From the sequence record NC_073069.1: a stretch of 44,283 nucleotides of DNA. One strand, given 5' to 3'. A model generated the notes under the pieces. That model made no database searches, was not told the origin of the DNA, and saw only the letters and a list, made by a program, of their open reading frames with translations. Shown here one piece after another: positions 3,051-44,283 of the stretch (the first letter of the stretch is position 1; every line of letters begins with the position of its first letter). The position numbers and the translations under genes are program-made. Origin of the DNA: Escherichia phage B2.

Positions 3051-4475
3051 ATGGCAAGATTCCGACGTCGCGAATATCAGAAGTTGATAACCGCGTTCAT
3101 CCTCAAGCATAAGCGATGCAATATCTGGGCGACAATGGGGTCGGGTAAAACTGGCGCGACCATGTGGGCACTGAATAAAATGTTCCAGACTGGTATCCTG
3201 TCCAACCGGGAGGACCGCGTACTGGTGCTGGCCCCGCTGCGCGTTGCGTCCGGTACATGGCCCCCGGAGCAGGAGAAATGGCGCTTCCCCGCCCTGCTGG
3301 TAGTAGACGGCACAGGGCCAGAGAAGGACCGCATTGCTGCGCTTGAGAGCGACGCTAACGTGGTTTGTGTTAACTATGATGTGGTTGAGTGGCTGGTTGA
3401 CTATTACGGCGCTGCGTGGCCCTTTACGGTCGTTGTTGCCGACGAATCCACTAAGCTGAAAGGCTATAGAAGCAAGCAGGGGAGTAAGCGCGCCCGCGCA
3501 CTGGCGGCGATTGCCCATAAGCACGTCAAGCGCTGGATTAACCTTACCGGCACACCCGCGCCAAACGGACTGAAAGACCTGTGGGGTCAGACGTGGTTTG
3601 TCGATGGTGGCGAACGCCTCGGCAGTAGCTATAAGGCATTTACGGATCGCTGGTTTATTAGCAAGCCTGTTAAGCCTGGCAGCTTCACTATGCAGCACGC
3701 CCCGCTTAAGAACTCCGAGAAAGAAATACAACAACGCCTGTCTGACGTATCGCTCACCGTTGATGCGGCTGAATACTTCGGATGTGACAAGCCAATCTAT
3801 ACGCCGGTTGTTGTGGACCTGCCGAAGAAAGCCCGCAAGATTTATGACCAGTTCGAAGCGGAGCTATTTGCCGAACTGGAAAGCGGAACGGTGGAGGCGG
3901 CGAACGCTGCTTCGAAGACCATTAAGTGCCTTCAGCTTGCTTCCGGGGCCGTGTATAAGGTCGACGAAGACGGCGAACGGACCGACGAATGGGTGAAAAT
4001 TCACGACGCTAAACTGGACGCGCTGGAAAGTATCGTGGAGGAGTTGAACGGCGCACCGTTGCTCGTCGCATACCAGTACAAGCATGACCTGGCGCGTCTC
4101 AGGAAGAAATTCCCGCACGGCGTAGCGATGGGTAAGGGTAAGCAAGGCAATAAGGATATGGAAGCGTGGAACAGGGGCGAGATCCCCATCATGTTTGCGC
4201 ACCCCGCATCGGCGGGTCACGGCCTTAACTTGCAGGATGGCGGACACCACCTTGCTATCTTCTCAGACACCTGGAACTATGAGCACTTTGCGCAGATCGT
4301 GGAGCGTATCGGGCCAGTTCGCCAGATGCAAGCCGGACACCCTCGTCCCGTATTCGTCTACATTATCCAGGCGCGCGGCACACTGGATGAACTGGTCGCA
4401 GAGCGTCGAGACAGTAAGCGAGATATCCAGGACGACCTGATGGAATACATGAAAGCTAAAAAGGCGCGCAAGTGA
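3051..4475 (+). CDS. SNF2/DEAD-like superfamily 2 helicase
   Basis: Walker A GSGKTGATM, motif II VVADESTKLK, C-terminal HPASAGHGLNLQ; start trimmed to the first ATG after the upstream stop. Confidence 0.85.
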   Translation: MARFRRREYQKLITAFILKHKRCNIWATMGSGKTGATMWALNKMFQTGILSNREDRVLVLAPLRVASGTWPPEQEKWRFPALLVVDGTGPEKDRIAALESDANVVCVNYDVVEWLVDYYGAAWPFTVVVADESTKLKGYRSKQGSKRARALAAIAHKHVKRWINLTGTPAPNGLKDLWGQTWFVDGGERLGSSYKAFTDRWFISKPVKPGSFTMQHAPLKNSEKEIQQRLSDVSLTVDAAEYFGCDKPIYTPVVVDLPKKARKIYDQFEAELFAELESGTVEAANAASKTIKCLQLASGAVYKVDEDGERTDEWVKIHDAKLDALESIVEELNGAPLLVAYQYKHDLARLRKKFPHGVAMGKGKQGNKDMEAWNRGEIPIMFAHPASAGHGLNLQDGGHHLAIFSDTWNYEHFAQIVERIGPVRQMQAGHPRPVFVYIIQARGTLDELVAERRDSKRDIQDDLMEYMKAKKARK

Positions 4476-40407: not shown

Positions 40408-40603
40408 TCACCCCGTCGACAGGATGCAGGACGCAAACTGGAGAGGGGCAACGCAGGGGCCGGATCGAAGTGTCAGGATTCCCAACCGTGATTATATAAC
40501 CAGGTCCACTACCCGAAAGGGAGAACGCGTAACCTGGCAATATGTTAAGGCCACCGACGAAGTTTACTGCCGACACCTAAACTTAACCAATCGGAGATAC
40601 ACC

Positions 40604-41032
40604 ATGTTTGAACAAATCGTAAACCTGATCACTCGCGGCGTAGTAGCACTGGAAATCATCGCTAAACATTATGAAACCGTTGGCGCTGCCGTTGGTAAGC
40701 AGGAAGACAAGAAGCCGTCTAAGGCCAAAAAAGAAGTCGTAGAAGATGACGACGATGAAACCGAAGACGAAAAACCGGCGAAGGGTAAAAAAGCACCTGC
40801 GAAAGGCAAAGGTAAGAAAGATGCCGACCCGCTGGCAGAGATGCGCGACGAGATCAAACAATACGCCGCGATTATCGCAGGTGGTGACGACGACGACGCG
40901 AACGACGAATTTGACGACCTGCTGGAGGCGTTCGAGATCAAATCAATCGCCAAGCTGGAAGATGACGACGTGGAAGATTTCCACAAAGATCTGAAAGAAA
41001 TCGTCGAAACTTATTTCGAATTGGAAGATTAA
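40604..41032 (+). CDS. highly acidic low-complexity protein (first rightward gene)
   Basis: ggaga SD then ATG 40604; 143 aa with D/E runs (EDDDDETEDE, GGDDDDANDEFDD) and a lysine-rich segment; the track ORF from 40424 is an R-rich upstream extension. Confidence 0.5.
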   Translation: MFEQIVNLITRGVVALEIIAKHYETVGAAVGKQEDKKPSKAKKEVVEDDDDETEDEKPAKGKKAPAKGKGKKDADPLAEMRDEIKQYAAIIAGGDDDDANDEFDDLLEAFEIKSIAKLEDDDVEDFHKDLKEIVETYFELED

Positions 41033-41332: not shown

Positions 41333-41521
41333 ATGGCTATATTTTTCGTTTTATTTCGCTGCCGTATTACCGGCGATGAGCAACCGGAAATCGTTATGAA
41401 TCAGAACTGGAATGGCTGCTGGACTCAAGCCAGAGGTTTGGCGGCTACCATGAACGAAGCCGCGAAGCGGGCCGGTGTTAAACATGAATATTACATTGCT
41501 CAGTTTTCAAGGGTGGAATAA
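41333..41521 (+). CDS. hypothetical protein
   Basis: 62 aa ORF starting right after the upstream stop with ggaga SD. Confidence 0.3.
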   Translation: MAIFFVLFRCRITGDEQPEIVMNQNWNGCWTQARGLAATMNEAAKRAGVKHEYYIAQFSRVE

Positions 41522-42951
41522 TGGCGATTAAACCAAAACGTAAAACGCAATCCGGCAGCAATACGGAACACTCATTACTCGGGCCATCCGGTGCTAAAAA
41601 ATGGATGGGTTGCCCTGCGGCCCTGGTGGTCGAAAAAGATATCCCGAACGAATCTGGACAGGCCGCGATTAATGGTACGAGTATGCACACCGTATCTGAA
41701 GTGGTGCTAAACCGCATTATCGCCGGTGAAAAGCTAATAACAGCAAAGACGTATAAAGGATGTTACGTCGAGAATGAAGGCAAGGGGCCAGTAAAGGCGC
41801 ACCCGAAAGCACCGAAAGGCGGCGTACTGGTCAACGACGACATGGTGAAACAGTGCGACGCGTACATCGACCACTGGCGACCACTCCTCGAGGTGGCGGA
41901 GTTTGTCCAGCTTGAGATGCGCGCCGATCTGACCCGCGTCCTTCATTCAGGCGTCGAGATAGACGGTAACAAGGTTAAGACGTTCGGCACTGCCGATATG
42001 GTCATGGTCATGAAGAAGACCGATGGCACGTACATGCTGATTGTTGGCGACTTGAAGACCGGGCGACATAAGGTCGAGGCGAAAGAAAACAAACAGCTTA
42101 TGTTGTACGCGCTCGGCCTGCTGCGCAAACTGCAAACCATGTATGACATTACGACCGTGCGCCTGGTCATCTTCCAGCCGTATTGCGGCGGGGCGTCAGA
42201 GTGGGATATCTCAGTGGAAGCGCTGGAGATATTCGCGAAGTTTGCGTCCAAGCGTGCTATCGCCGCGCTCGATGCATACGCCCGCGGCAAGAAGGGACTA
42301 ACCCGCGCCGACTTCCGGCCCAGCGTCGATGCGTGCCAGTGGTGCAGATTTGCGGACCAGTGCAGCGTCCGGGCGAAGGCCGCAATCGACACGATGACGC
42401 CACCAACGGCAACCGACGAAGACCTGGGCGACGACGTGAGCGTGGCAACCGAGGAAGAGTGCGCCAACCACGACCGCAATATGGCCCGCGAAGCCCGGAA
42501 GGCTGCCCGACGTGCTAAACGGGGCAAGAAGGAATCCACCCCAGGCGCTATGAGCGCGGCGGAACTGCGCAAGGCTTATGAAGGACTTGACGCAATGCGC
42601 CAGCACATCAAAGCTATCGAATCCGCGGTATTCAAGGCGGTCATGGCGGGCGATGGCGAATCGTTGGGCCTTAAGATGGTTGCCGGTAAGGAAGGGATCC
42701 GTAAGTGGGCGGACGAGAGCGAAGTGATTGAAATATTCACGAAGGCCCGGATCAAGCGCGATGTGATGTACAAAGAAACATTGCTCAGCCCTACGGATGC
42801 CGAGAAGGTGTTGAAGGACGAAAAACCGAAAGTGTGGGCGAAGCTGTGTGCTAAAATCACGCGCGCACCCGCTAAACCGGTGTTAGCACCCATCGACGAC
42901 CCTCGCCCTGCGTGGTCGGAAGCTACTGACGAGGACTTAAGCAATGAATAA
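41521..42951 (+). CDS. PD-(D/E)XK nuclease with Cas4-like cysteine cluster (DUF2800-like)
   Basis: N-terminal Cys (MGCPAA), core TADMVMV...IVGDLKTG, C-terminal CQWCRFADQC cluster; charged C-terminal extension. Confidence 0.6.
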   Translation: MAIKPKRKTQSGSNTEHSLLGPSGAKKWMGCPAALVVEKDIPNESGQAAINGTSMHTVSEVVLNRIIAGEKLITAKTYKGCYVENEGKGPVKAHPKAPKGGVLVNDDMVKQCDAYIDHWRPLLEVAEFVQLEMRADLTRVLHSGVEIDGNKVKTFGTADMVMVMKKTDGTYMLIVGDLKTGRHKVEAKENKQLMLYALGLLRKLQTMYDITTVRLVIFQPYCGGASEWDISVEALEIFAKFASKRAIAALDAYARGKKGLTRADFRPSVDACQWCRFADQCSVRAKAAIDTMTPPTATDEDLGDDVSVATEEECANHDRNMAREARKAARRAKRGKKESTPGAMSAAELRKAYEGLDAMRQHIKAIESAVFKAVMAGDGESLGLKMVAGKEGIRKWADESEVIEIFTKARIKRDVMYKETLLSPTDAEKVLKDEKPKVWAKLCAKITRAPAKPVLAPIDDPRPAWSEATDEDLSNE

Positions 42952-43186
42952 AGTATTCGCATTCTTATTGATGATTATGCTCGGTGCGCTGGGCTTTATC
43001 CTGCATTGCGTGCAATGCGTGTTAATGGTGGCCTGGATGATTCGCCATCCGACCCGCTGGCTGGACGATGGATATAGTGCCGCCGTCGTCGACTGGGTGG
43101 AGAAGAACATCGACCGACCGCCGTTAAGCTGGATCGAGAACGTCATCAACTACGTGACCAGAAATCTTTTTAATGAAAATGCTTGA
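42944..43186 (+). CDS. small membrane protein
   Basis: ATGAATAA start/stop overlap; N-terminal hydrophobic helix FAFLLMIMLGALGFIL. Confidence 0.35.
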   Translation: MNKVFAFLLMIMLGALGFILHCVQCVLMVAWMIRHPTRWLDDGYSAAVVDWVEKNIDRPPLSWIENVINYVTRNLFNENA

Positions 43187-43276
43187 CCACCCAGGCGCAA
43201 CCAAGTAGATTAGCAACCAAGCCGAACGGGGTGGCTCACAATAACCCCGATACATGTGAAACTGAGGAATTGGAAA

Positions 43277-44059
43277 ATGGCTAAAGTCAACCTGAAAAAT
43301 GTGCGCGTATGTTTCCTTAAAATTTGGGAGCGCGATACCCCTAAACAGGATGGACAAAAACCGGCATACCGTGCAGTGATTCTTCTTGATAAAGAAGATC
43401 CGCAGGTGGACAAAGTGGAAGCGGCAGCGCGCGCAGTGCTCACCGACAAGCTGAAATCCGAGAAGAATGCTGATAAGTGGATGGACCGCCATTACGCCCA
43501 GGATTCTAAGGAATGCGCAGTTCGCGACGGTGACGAGCGCGACGAAGTGACCGAAGAATTCGAAGGCATGTTGTACATCAACGCCAAATCGTTCAAGCAG
43601 CCAAACATTCAAACGTCACTCGGCGAGAAGCAGACTGAACAAGGTCTGACTGTAGAAGGCGACGAGATCGAAGGCCAGGAGATCTACTCCGGTTGTTATT
43701 GCAATGTGTCCCTGGATATTTGGGCGTGGAACAATACCAACGGCAAGGGACTCGGTGCTGGTCTTTTAGGTCTGCGCTTCCGTGATGACGGCGAAGCCTT
43801 CGGCGGTGGCGGTTCTTCTTGCTCCGACGAAGACCTGGACAACGATGACGAAGATGAAAGCCCGCGCAAGTCCAAAAAGTCAAAACGTCGTGATGACGAC
43901 GACGATGACGACAAGCCGCGCAAGTCCAAAAAGTCCAAGCGCCGCGATGACGACGACGATGAGGAAGATGAAAAACCTCGCAAACGTCGTAAGCCACGCG
44001 ATGACGAAGATGAGGACGACGACGAAGACGAAGCGCCACGTAAACGTCGCCGCCGTTAA
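43277..44059 (+). CDS. DUF2815-like protein (putative ssDNA-binding) with acidic/basic tandem-repeat tail
   Basis: Start MAKVNLKNVRVCF typical of the family, with gagga SD; C-terminal about 3 copies of an 18-aa PRKSKKSKRRDDDDD unit. Confidence 0.6.
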   Translation: MAKVNLKNVRVCFLKIWERDTPKQDGQKPAYRAVILLDKEDPQVDKVEAAARAVLTDKLKSEKNADKWMDRHYAQDSKECAVRDGDERDEVTEEFEGMLYINAKSFKQPNIQTSLGEKQTEQGLTVEGDEIEGQEIYSGCYCNVSLDIWAWNNTNGKGLGAGLLGLRFRDDGEAFGGGGSSCSDEDLDNDDEDESPRKSKKSKRRDDDDDDDKPRKSKKSKRRDDDDDEEDEKPRKRRKPRDDEDEDDDEDEAPRKRRRR

Positions 44060-44077
44060 GGGCAAAGCCCACTATTC

Positions 44078-44102
44078 AAGCCCGCTTAATGCGGGCTTTT
44101 TA
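44078..44102 (+). terminator. intrinsic terminator
   Basis: aagcccgc-ttaat-gcgggctt followed by ttttaat. Confidence 0.65.
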
Positions 44103-44116
44103 ATAGGACAATGAAA

Positions 44117-44283
44117 ATGCGTATTAAAGCCAGCGAAGTAAAAGTCGGAATGCAAGTATGGTCCAAAATGCTGGGCGAATATTTCACAGTTGCCGAGATT
44201 CGCAACAACGGCGAGGAGATTACCCTTTCCGACGGTATCTTCTCCATGATCGGCAGTGCTGACGCCGTGGTGAGGATTAAGCA
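44117..44283 (+). CDS. hypothetical protein, truncated by the window end (or closing onto position 1 if circular)
   Basis: ORF MRIKASEVKVGMQVW... runs to the last base; joined to position 1 it would end with a TGA overlapping the polymerase ATG. Confidence 0.3.
   Translation, partial: MRIKASEVKVGMQVWSKMLGEYFTVAEIRNNGEEITLSDGIFSMIGSADAVVRIK

Follow-up and report, generated by a model that had tools for sequence, protein, structure and literature searches.

Tandem repeats of variable copy number encode an alternating basic and acidic tail on a gp2.5-type single-stranded DNA-binding protein of Dhillonvirus phages

Introduction

The 3' end of one gene in the genome of Escherichia phage B2 (NC_073069.1; one strand of 44,283 nucleotides (nt), analysed at its full length and referred to below as the window) consists of tandem repeats with a period of 54 nt, the translation of which alternates between strongly basic and strongly acidic stretches. 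The gene encodes an SSB (single-stranded DNA-binding protein), and the question raised by this locus is whether the repeats serve the protein, the DNA in which they are written, or neither of the two. The C-terminal tails of SSBs are hubs that recruit replication, recombination and repair proteins. The textbook rule, which the paper on the Enc34 SSB restates, assigns an acidic tail to the SSBs of prokaryotes and phages (PMC5686142). The protein studied here, together with a large clade of relatives, breaks this rule twice, namely by a basic oligo-arginine end and by a linker that is a blocky polyampholyte.

The repeat is real and statistically robust; it is hypervariable, lies in coding sequence and belongs to a protein of a well-known kind. 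The explanation favoured in the current work, which we hold to be about evenly balanced between right and wrong, is that the repeats encode a disordered, block-patterned polyampholyte extension of the canonical acidic SSB tail, which would tune the electrostatic contacts of the protein with itself, with DNA and with its partners.

Results

The repeats are located at the end of an SSB gene of the Enc34 and T7 gp2.5 type

In agreement with the original prediction, which had placed the repeats on a DUF2815-like protein, residues 3-193 of the gene product (260 amino acids (aa); Table 1) match PF10991 (Enc34_ssDNA-bd; formerly DUF2815) with 110.1 bits (E 1.2e-31) in a Pfam search, the curated cut-off of this family being 26 bits, and the protein also matches PHROG 112, 'Gp2.5-like ssDNA binding protein' (E 1e-54). 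A sequence search against the PDB retrieved the DUF2815 structures 4klk and 4jg2 as well as Enc34 ORF6 (5odj), and an annotated coding sequence is present at the same coordinates in NC_073070.1. The AlphaFold2 model, which was built on 82 homologues, assigns a mean predicted local distance difference test (pLDDT) score of 94-98 to every 10-residue block of residues 1-170. The top Foldseek matches of this model are 4klk, 5odl, 5odj and 4jg2 (E 5e-13 to 2e-11), among which 5odl_A, the Enc34 SSB with single-stranded DNA (ssDNA), is matched with an E value of 2e-12 and a target-normalised TM score of 0.76; these are followed by T7 gp2.5 (1je5, E 1e-6), with structures of E. coli SSB being reached only at E > 1. 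Neither the bacterial SSB family PF00436 nor a cold-shock domain was found by the Pfam search, which returned PF10991 only, and the structural matches are to gp2.5-type SSBs. The protein is a member of PF10991 with the gp2.5-type variant of the OB fold.

In this type of fold, the aromatic residue that opens strand beta4 stacks on ssDNA, being Trp150 in Enc34 and Tyr158 in T7 (PMC5686142). By alignment, Y137 and Y141 of the protein (EIYSGCY) line up with EVYSGVY of 4klk, and Y137 is at least 90% conserved among the 82 homologues; judged from this alignment, the protein appears to carry the conserved ssDNA-stacking aromatic at the start of strand beta4.

The tail alternates between basic and acidic blocks and is predicted to be disordered

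The part of the protein that follows the OB fold amounts to 77 aa and is composed of four basic and four acidic blocks (Table 1), with Ser195 located between the proximal acidic block and repeat unit 1 (U1). These repeats had been described as about three near-identical 54-bp copies of an 18-aa unit; they are real and lie where they had been placed, although the units measure 18, 20 and 20 aa and only U1 and U2 are near-identical, with 47 of 54 aligned bases being the same (87%), a 6-nt insertion or deletion (indel) and a longest exact repeat of 20 nt, whereas the DNA of U3 is approximately 72-74% identical to that of either U1 or U2. Tandem Repeats Finder reports the interval 43842-43966 with a period of 54, 2.3 copies, 84% matches and a score of 178, and a repeat search yields 3 copies of a 54-nt unit at 100, 81 and 61% identity.

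Table 1 Coordinates of the SSB gene, of the parts of its product and of flanking elements in the window
Feature	Position	Strand	Description or basis
SSB gene, Enc34/T7 gp2.5-type	43277..44059	+	260 aa plus stop; open reading frame list, translation, family matches
OB-fold ssDNA-binding domain, aa 1-183	43277..43825	+	AlphaFold2, Foldseek, ratio of non-synonymous to synonymous polymorphism (pN/pS) 0.057
Proximal acidic block DEDLDNDDEDE, aa 184-194	43826..43858	+	charge -9; aligns with family consensus ...DDFDxxDDxD
Repeat unit 1 (U1), PRKSKKSKRRDDDDDDDK	43862..43915	+	PRKSKKSKRR + DDDDDDDK, 18 aa
Repeat unit 2 (U2), PRKSKKSKRRDDDDDEEDEK	43916..43975	+	PRKSKKSKRR + DDDDDEEDEK, 20 aa; 87% DNA identity to U1
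Repeat unit 3 (U3), PRKRRKPRDDEDEDDDEDEA	43976..44035	+	PRKRRKPR + DDEDEDDDEDEA, 20 aa; diverged copy
Terminal basic block PRKRRRR	44036..44056	+	C-terminus of the protein; partial unit
Intrinsic-terminator-like hairpin and U run just past the SSB stop	44078..44103	+	fold -24.8 kcal/mol, z -4.9, 0/200 shuffles as good
Possible sigma-70-like promoter upstream of the SSB gene	43183..43211	+	TTGACC-17-TAGATT; weak evidence

Residues 183-260, corresponding to the tail plus Ser183 (78 aa), comprise 28 Lys or Arg and 36 Asp or Glu residues, which represents a charged fraction of 0.82 and a net charge of -8, and the charges of the successive tail blocks are -9, +7, -7, +8, -9, +7, -11 and +6. The kappa value of this region is 0.54 as compared to 0.10 +/- 0.04 in shuffled versions, not one of 2000 of which reached 0.54, and the block patterning of the tail is far beyond chance. 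In the AlphaFold2 model the tail obtains pLDDT values of 51-57, secondary structure being absent beyond residue 187, and the tail is predicted to be intrinsically disordered. A disordered, net-acidic tail is what SSBs of PF10991 carry, and the net charge of -8 equals the median of the plain-tailed relatives; the extreme C-terminus, acidic (and often acidic-hydrophobic) in the family, is here the basic PRKRRRR.

Three further open reading frames (ORFs) span the repeat in other frames or on the opposite strand, at 43593-44072 (-), 43696-43983 (-, poly-Ser) and 43782-44114 (+). Their products across the repeat are poly-Ser, Arg/His-rich or Met/Thr/Lys-rich, and they were rejected as genes, being mirror products of the repetitive GAY, AAR and CGN codons. 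The product of the tail in the +1 frame occurs only in frameshifted records (P0005 and P0009).

Repeat copy number differs between near-identical phages

The window is a Dhillonvirus genome, matched by 153 phage records at 80-97% identity. In order to compare tail lengths, 24 distinct Dhillonvirus alleles were aligned and supplemented with additional GenBank records (Table 2). At least five different in-frame indels, with their junctions inside the repeats, are represented in this collection. The DNA of the OB domain is 99.5% identical between the one-block allele of welsh and a four-block allele, 99.8% identical between CHD5UKE2 (three blocks) and RuthEpting (four blocks) and 100% identical between EP23 (two blocks) and Envy (three blocks), and the copy-number events are recent. 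The expectation that isolates differ in length at the DNA repeat is thus borne out by a range of one to four basic blocks at 99.5-100% OB-DNA identity. These sequences are best explained if unequal recombination or slippage between the DNA repeats of 54-60 nt, always in frame, generated the modules and continues to add and remove them.

Table 2 Tail variants among Dhillonvirus SSB alleles
Phage or allele	Protein length (aa)	Basic blocks	Missing or altered relative to the window
welsh	202	1	all three internal units missing
EP23	224	2	U2 and U3 missing
HK578, EK99P-1, Envy, CHD5UKE2	236-243	3	one PRKSKKSKRR unit missing
JL1, BF9, TheodorHerzl	240-242	3	U3 missing
Metagenomic allele L006	247	3	U2/U3 hybrid junction
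Window and majority of alleles	256-263	4	nothing missing

Whatever the copy number, the proximal acidic block is kept in every Dhillonvirus allele, and the terminal PRKRRRR is kept in all alleles with one to four blocks except the divergent allele L022, which ends in PRSRRNRR. Since the propagated isolate welsh lacks all three internal units and EP23 lacks two of them, the internal units are dispensable for viability.

All observed tail indels are in frame, save one frameshifted record. The reading frame is shifted by 1 nt where the tail begins in vB_EcoS-22664B1 (locus L024, MZ234008.1, 308-1117), and also in P0005 and P0009; the frameshifted SSB annotation reads the repeat as …MTKMKHRARLRSPNVV… repeated and overruns the normal stop, with the normal tail being intact in the adjacent frame. 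The 22664B1 frameshift may stem from an error made in sequencing the repeat, or it may truly knock out the tail in a viable phage.

The unit count of the window itself is to be treated with some reserve, because its copy number may derive from a reference frame. When compared with NC_073070.1 (Escherichia phage CEC_Kaz_2018), the window has the same length of 44,283 nt and the same gene coordinates, with 4030 substitutions (9.1%; transition to transversion ratio 1.4) and no indel, whereas natural Dhillonvirus pairs at approximately 9.1% divergence differ by indels. The SSB region of the window is moreover closer to other phages, with 97.2% identity to SSL-2009a (43200-44283) as against 91.8% to CEC_Kaz_2018 (43740-44115). 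The window has the look of a consensus guided by a reference and limited to substitutions, or else of a re-coded sequence; the same four-block tail is carried by many independent genomes.

Alternating tails recur in two clades of the family

Homologue searches that are indexed by words favour proteins that share the tail, and were for this reason not used to estimate prevalence; such a search recovered 120 clusters at 28-99% identity, mostly with alternating tails of two to nine blocks. Prevalence was instead estimated with HMMER by using only the OB domain as the query against 1.84 billion cluster representatives, which avoids the bias introduced by the tail. Among the 150 nearest 50%-identity representatives obtained in this way, 136 have a tail that is devoid of a basic block, most of these tails being plain acidic and many having tips such as DDDLPF, DDIPF or DDLI, and about 9% of the 150 best matches carry at least one basic block. 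The tail had been considered unusual for this family, which agrees with these counts, but it also fills two large clades and occurs in named phages. In a scan of viral contigs, the full-length protein was swamped by poly-Asp patterns (7 loci), and the OB domain alone recovered 16 loci.

In a rough neighbour-joining tree built from OB domains only, 117 proteins with an alternating tail fall mainly into two clades of 91 and 26 members, with about six singletons. The 91-member clade, which includes the window, has two to four blocks and ends in RRRR or in acidic residues, and the 26-member clade has three to nine blocks and ends in DDVA, DDVV, DDDY and similar sequences; a basic C-terminal end is present in 64 of the 117 alternating tails. 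A proline is located at the N-terminal boundary of 90% of 413 basic blocks, as compared to 35% of random 6-mers. The median net charge of the tail is approximately -8 for proteins with zero, two, three or four basic blocks, and the modules are therefore near charge-neutral additions to the canonical acidic tail. The alternating design is retained even where OB identity is 28-50% and the DNA is unrelated.

Shorter and longer versions are found in named phages. The SSBs of Jerseyvirus SETP3 and Kagunavirus Escherichia phage L AB-2017 (208 aa; 501-1127 of loci L033 and L034, respectively) have minimal tails, ...DDLEDDEDETPRRERRRNR and ...DLEDDEEDEAPRRERRRR, which are composed of one acidic block and a basic end. 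These tails, with the ends PRRERRRNR and PRRERRRR in Jerseyvirus and Kagunavirus, match the one-block form of welsh, and because both genera carry such a minimal basic-ended tail, the basic C-terminus seems to be shared with Guernseyvirinae. The SSB of Loktanella phage pCB2051-A (Casjensviridae; locus L035, NC_020853.1, 692-1720; 342 aa) has a tail of (GSSR)n followed by approximately ten PRGRGRGR/acidic repeats and the end ...GRDDDIA, and is an extreme RG-rich alternating version that keeps the acidic-hydrophobic tip. In a metagenomic locus (L020, IMGVR_UViG_3300045988_003101), the SSB frame ends with …DDAVSYTHLRAHET at the contig edge, which we take to be the translation of a Nextera transposase adapter, meaning that this contig end would be untrimmed adapter.

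A published description of an alternating SSB tail was not found in the literature on Enc34, DUF2815, Dhillonvirus ssDNA and acidic/basic SSB tails; the alternating tail recurs across many phages, yet is undescribed.

Selection acts on the peptide

Excluding the divergent allele L022 left 23 alleles, over which pN/pS was calculated as a pooled Nei-Gojobori estimate; it amounts to 0.123 for the tail and 0.057 for the OB domain, and variable tail columns mostly represent swaps between D and E or between K and R. Four synonymous changes, but not a single non-synonymous one, separate U1 from U2 over the first 15 codons, with a synonymous divergence of about 0.44. Because only synonymous differences are present, the duplication that generated U1 and U2 is not recent and its peptide has been held constant; gene conversion is disfavoured as the cause of this peptide identity, since it would have homogenised the silent sites too. 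The tail is under purifying selection, which in the best-supported reading of these sequences is for its charge pattern.

These data bear directly on the possibility that the tail is a neutral low-complexity expansion, that is, one that slippage or unequal recombination produced incidentally in a stretch rich in purines and repetitive in its codons, in which case the tail would need only to be disordered and net acidic and its units would be functionless. Frequent gain and loss of units among near-identical phages is as expected under such neutrality, as are the viability of welsh without any internal unit, the minimal tail with which the Jerseyvirus and Kagunavirus orthologues cope, the more relaxed evolution of the tail relative to the OB domain and the 22664B1 record that is frameshifted at the tail start. 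It accords less well with a tail pN/pS of 0.12 in which most replacements in variable columns keep the charge, with a U1/U2 synonymous divergence of about 0.44 reached without any amino-acid change, with the retention of block pattern, proline junctions and net charge in clades at 28-50% OB identity, and with indels that, but for one frameshifted record, are all in frame. A neutral, slippage-driven origin is a serious rival, which on this balance we judge to be unlikely. The original prediction had reckoned that absence and dispensability of the repeat in functional orthologues would count against a role; internal units are indeed missing from the propagated isolate welsh and from the Jerseyvirus and Kagunavirus orthologues, but the units are still not neutral (pN/pS 0.12).

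A constraint on the DNA rather than on the protein was considered as well, in which the 54-nt direct repeats would act in cis as iterons, as an origin or as a packaging signal lying within a gene, for which the lambda O gene is an example. The repeats are direct, are spaced by approximately 54 nt and lie inside a replication gene, but only two copies are near-identical with no exact repeat longer than 20 nt, the differences between copies are synonymous, which points to conservation at the protein level, welsh propagates although the entire repeat region is missing, and in distant homologues the peptide pattern is retained while the DNA is unrelated. As U1 and U2 differ silently with an unchanged peptide, the constraint would be on the protein and not on an element at DNA level. 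An iteron-type origin (lambda ori in gene O) was rejected in view of two close copies, a 20-nt longest exact match, synonymous drift and the deletion of the region in welsh. A repeat search found no inverted repeats in the tail repeat region, and a Rfam search returned sub-threshold matches only, all of which lie on the terminator hairpin; considering also that the repeat is absent in a viable phage, a DNA-level element or structured RNA was rejected as close to refuted, and a cis-acting role is in our estimate extremely improbable.

Gene order and candidate docking partners

The SSB gene is part of the phage replication module, the order of which is a DUF2800/PD-(D/E)XK exonuclease gene (41521-42951), an 80-aa ORF (42944-43186), the SSB gene, a 56-aa ORF and the DNA polymerase gene (1-2292), which starts at position 1; a helicase is encoded at 3051-4475. 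The order exonuclease, small ORF, SSB, (small ORF) and DNA polymerase is kept in Dhillonvirus, Jerseyvirus and Kagunavirus, a small ORF preceding the SSB gene in the two Guernseyvirinae phages, and the Loktanella phage has the order exonuclease, SSB and polymerase without the small ORFs.

This conserved order is consistent with an alternative in which the tail is a docking platform, such that the oligo-arginine end and/or the repeated blocks are specific sites for replication partners and replace the acidic-hydrophobic tip of T7 gp2.5 and E. coli SSB. Candidate partners would be the adjacent DNA polymerase, a helicase or primase-helicase and the DUF2800 PD-(D/E)XK exonuclease, although nothing points to the DUF2800 protein in particular. 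SSB tails bind partners in T7 and E. coli (PMC5686142; PMC13402713), and PRKRRRR and the proximal acidic block are the only parts of the tail that are invariant across copy-number variants; the internal units can be lost, which means that the terminal block would at most be the docking site. Docking by the oligo-arginine end is a second serious rival, and like a neutral origin it is in our view an improbable one.

Orthologues involved in defence systems

The SSBs of SECphi4 and SECphi18 are direct orthologues of the protein with the same N-terminus, OB domain and tail design, having three and four basic blocks, respectively. Expression of the SECphi4 SSB triggers Retron-Eco8 toxicity (bioRxiv 10.1101/2022.08.27.505566, Stokar-Avihail et al.), by which preferential ssDNA binding by this orthologue may be regarded as indirectly supported, such binding itself being demonstrated for Enc34 ORF6 only (PMC5686142). 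According to the available parts of that preprint and its Table S2, escape from Eco8 in SECphi4 and SECphi18 involves T56P or a promoter/intergenic change, the SECphi4 mutation being located in the intergenic region upstream of the SSB orthologue; the SSB gene is also a ShosTA escape locus in both phages, with the mutations N152H, F106V, T21P and F95L. In the available part of Table S2, the coding escape mutations for Eco8 and ShosTA all map to the OB fold and none to the tail, and the SECphi4 structure figure leaves out the 'flexible C-terminal residues' (10.1101/2022.08.27.505566). Because both phages gave Eco8 escape mutants, the three-block SECphi4 and the four-block SECphi18 alleles are both sensed.

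Rapid copy-number turnover in a gene whose SECphi4 and SECphi18 orthologues are an Eco8 trigger and a ShosTA escape locus could reflect an immune-evasion polymorphism, in which SSB-sensing defences (Retron-Eco8, ShosTA) select altered tail lengths. Against this, the coding escapes listed in the available part of Table S2 (T56P for Eco8; N152H, F106V, T21P and F95L for ShosTA) lie in the OB fold, with one further promoter mutation, and deletion of the T7 gp2.5 C-tail leaves Eco8 activation unaffected (PMC13402713), which makes immune evasion very unlikely. On the same two grounds, within what the available part of that source lists, the idea that defence systems sense the tail was rejected as the main explanation. 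The SSB has no match in the PADLOC defence-system library.

Flanking elements and other genes of the window

A terminator is annotated in WF5505 at a place that matches the hairpin just past the SSB stop (Table 1), and under the match in CS16 and WFI, although a simple consensus terminator scan did not list the hairpin at 44078-44103. The putative promoter upstream of the gene matches the consensus at 9 of 12 positions, which is no more than shuffled sequences give; in SETP3 a promoter is annotated upstream of the SSB orthologue.

The 56-aa ORF (MRIKASEVKVGMQVWSK…) occupies 44117-44283 and continues at position 1, as the boundary of the window cuts it 4 nt before its end, and its stop overlaps the DNA polymerase ATG at position 1 (ATGA). 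In Table S2 (10.1101/2022.08.27.505566), E21fs mutants of its SECphi18 orthologue share a block with the DNA-polymerase R171L escaper, which the main text assigns to Borvo.

A 202-aa protein encoded in this module at 40424-41032 (+; PHROG 3127) contains an alternating lysine-rich and acidic stretch (KPSKAKK / EVVEDDDDETEDE / KPAKGKKAPAKGKGKK / DAD…), has an acidic C-terminal half, and has no match in Pfam or PADLOC; a (GAC)n tract is located at 40886-40908. It is possible that this protein is an electrostatic partner of the SSB tail, or else a parallel case.

Discussion

Each functional step of the favoured explanation, in which the repeats extend the canonical acidic tail as a polyampholyte, is inferred from what the sections above establish, namely the family and fold of the protein, the charge pattern and predicted disorder of its tail, purifying selection, copy-number polymorphism and distribution. 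Binding of nucleic acid or of a partner by the tail, as the original prediction suggested, is plausible by analogy with T7 gp2.5 and Enc34 ORF6 (PMC5686142). The canonical tail would correspond to the proximal DEDLDNDDEDE block and the net charge of about -8, extended by near-neutral modules, each made of a basic block (+7 or +8) that begins with Pro and of an acidic block (-7 to -11) behind it, with the oligo-arginine end capping the tail in place of the usual acidic-hydrophobic tip. The acidic blocks, like the tails of gp2.5 and Enc34, may mimic ssDNA and fill the basic OB cleft in cis or in trans, and would thereby keep the SSB off double-stranded DNA (dsDNA) and pass it on to partners. The basic blocks set between them would make the tail self-complementary and multivalent, such that the tails of neighbouring SSBs and the DNA backbone could zip together electrostatically. 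The outcome would be cooperative coating, annealing or condensation of ssDNA, with the unit copy number setting valency and reach.

Several points weigh against this explanation. Any function of the internal units is non-essential under laboratory propagation, as seen in welsh and EP23; judged by pN/pS, constraint on the tail is roughly twofold weaker than on the OB domain; the AlphaFold2 model contains no confident contact between the tail and the OB domain; and the docking model of gp2.5, in which a C-terminal aromatic and acidic tip docks on the polymerase, is not directly transferable, because this SSB ends in basic residues.

A bolder and rather doubtful proposal is that the SSB clade of enterobacterial siphoviruses (Dhillonvirus, Jerseyvirus, Kagunavirus and metagenomic relatives) swapped the supposedly universal acidic tip for a Pro-oligo-arginine tip, to which Dhillonvirus would have added a copy-number-variable 'charge zipper' driving multivalent SSB-SSB or SSB-DNA association, such that cooperative filaments or condensates would form at the replication fork, with unit number as a fast-evolving tuning knob of replication or recombination.

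The alleles form a natural series of one to four blocks in near-identical, easily grown E. coli phages, including the BASEL phages TheodorHerzl (Bas14) and RuthEpting (Bas85) as well as SECphi4 and SECphi18, which makes the effects of charge patterning and valency on ssDNA binding, cooperativity and condensation, which are usually difficult to study in vivo, directly testable, with the Retron-Eco8 trigger and the ShosTA escape locus providing ready phenotypic read-outs. Were the tail functionally neutral, the repeat would be only a well-documented hypervariable coding repeat, and would even then matter for annotation and assembly, given the frameshifted records.

Comparison with known systems

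The closest known systems are the SSBs of Enc34 and T7. Enc34 ORF6 is an SSB with a disordered acidic tail, the deletion of which leaves ssDNA binding unchanged and confers dsDNA binding, and in its crystals the beta-sheet of each neighbour serves as the docking site of a tail (PMC5686142). The protein studied here resembles Enc34 ORF6 and T7 gp2.5 in its Pfam family, in its OB-fold variant, in a disordered net-acidic tail that follows a conserved FGGG motif, and in its site within the replication module next to the DNA polymerase. It differs from them in that their tails are essentially acidic throughout (T7 ends in ...EDGDF), whereas the tail in the window has four basic blocks of +6 to +8, tandem repeats of variable copy number and the end PRKRRRR. 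In the T7 gp2.5 tail, two acidic tracts are separated by just one short basic stretch, KASKPR; within it (…SAKASKPRDEES…), the KPR-acid junction is like the KPRK/KPRD junctions of the SSB tail, a weak resemblance that may be due to chance.

The linker of E. coli SSB is rich in Gly, Gln and Pro and carries almost no charge, and an acidic DDDIPF tip forms the C-terminus. Although E. coli SSB likewise has a disordered region between its OB fold and its C-terminal end, it belongs to another OB family without PF10991 and is tetrameric, whereas in the protein described here 82% of the linker is charged and the C-terminus is basic. T4 gp32 combines an N-terminal (Lys/Arg)3(Ser/Thr)2 'LAST' motif for cooperative self-association with an acidic, partner-binding C-terminal domain; PRKSKKSKRR is similar to the LAST motif in composition only, and the two elements of gp32 are located at opposite ends of the protein, are unrepeated and belong to another fold family. 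For E. coli SSB, the linker has been tied to cooperativity and phase separation in the available parts of reports such as bioRxiv 10.1101/797431 and PMC12143593.

In design, the nearest analogue of the SSB tail is that of the vertebrate Y-box proteins YB-1 and FRGY2, in which a cold-shock domain is followed by clusters of alternating basic and acidic character, to which binding of RNA and of proteins is ascribed (PMC5906478). Both consist of a beta-barrel domain that binds single-stranded nucleic acid and of a disordered tail with four alternating clusters; they share no homology, a cold-shock domain not being a gp2.5-type OB fold, Y-box proteins are eukaryotic, and the clusters of YB-1 belong to a tail of approximately 200 aa whose acidic regions are aromatic-rich. 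The resemblance is one of design and not of membership.

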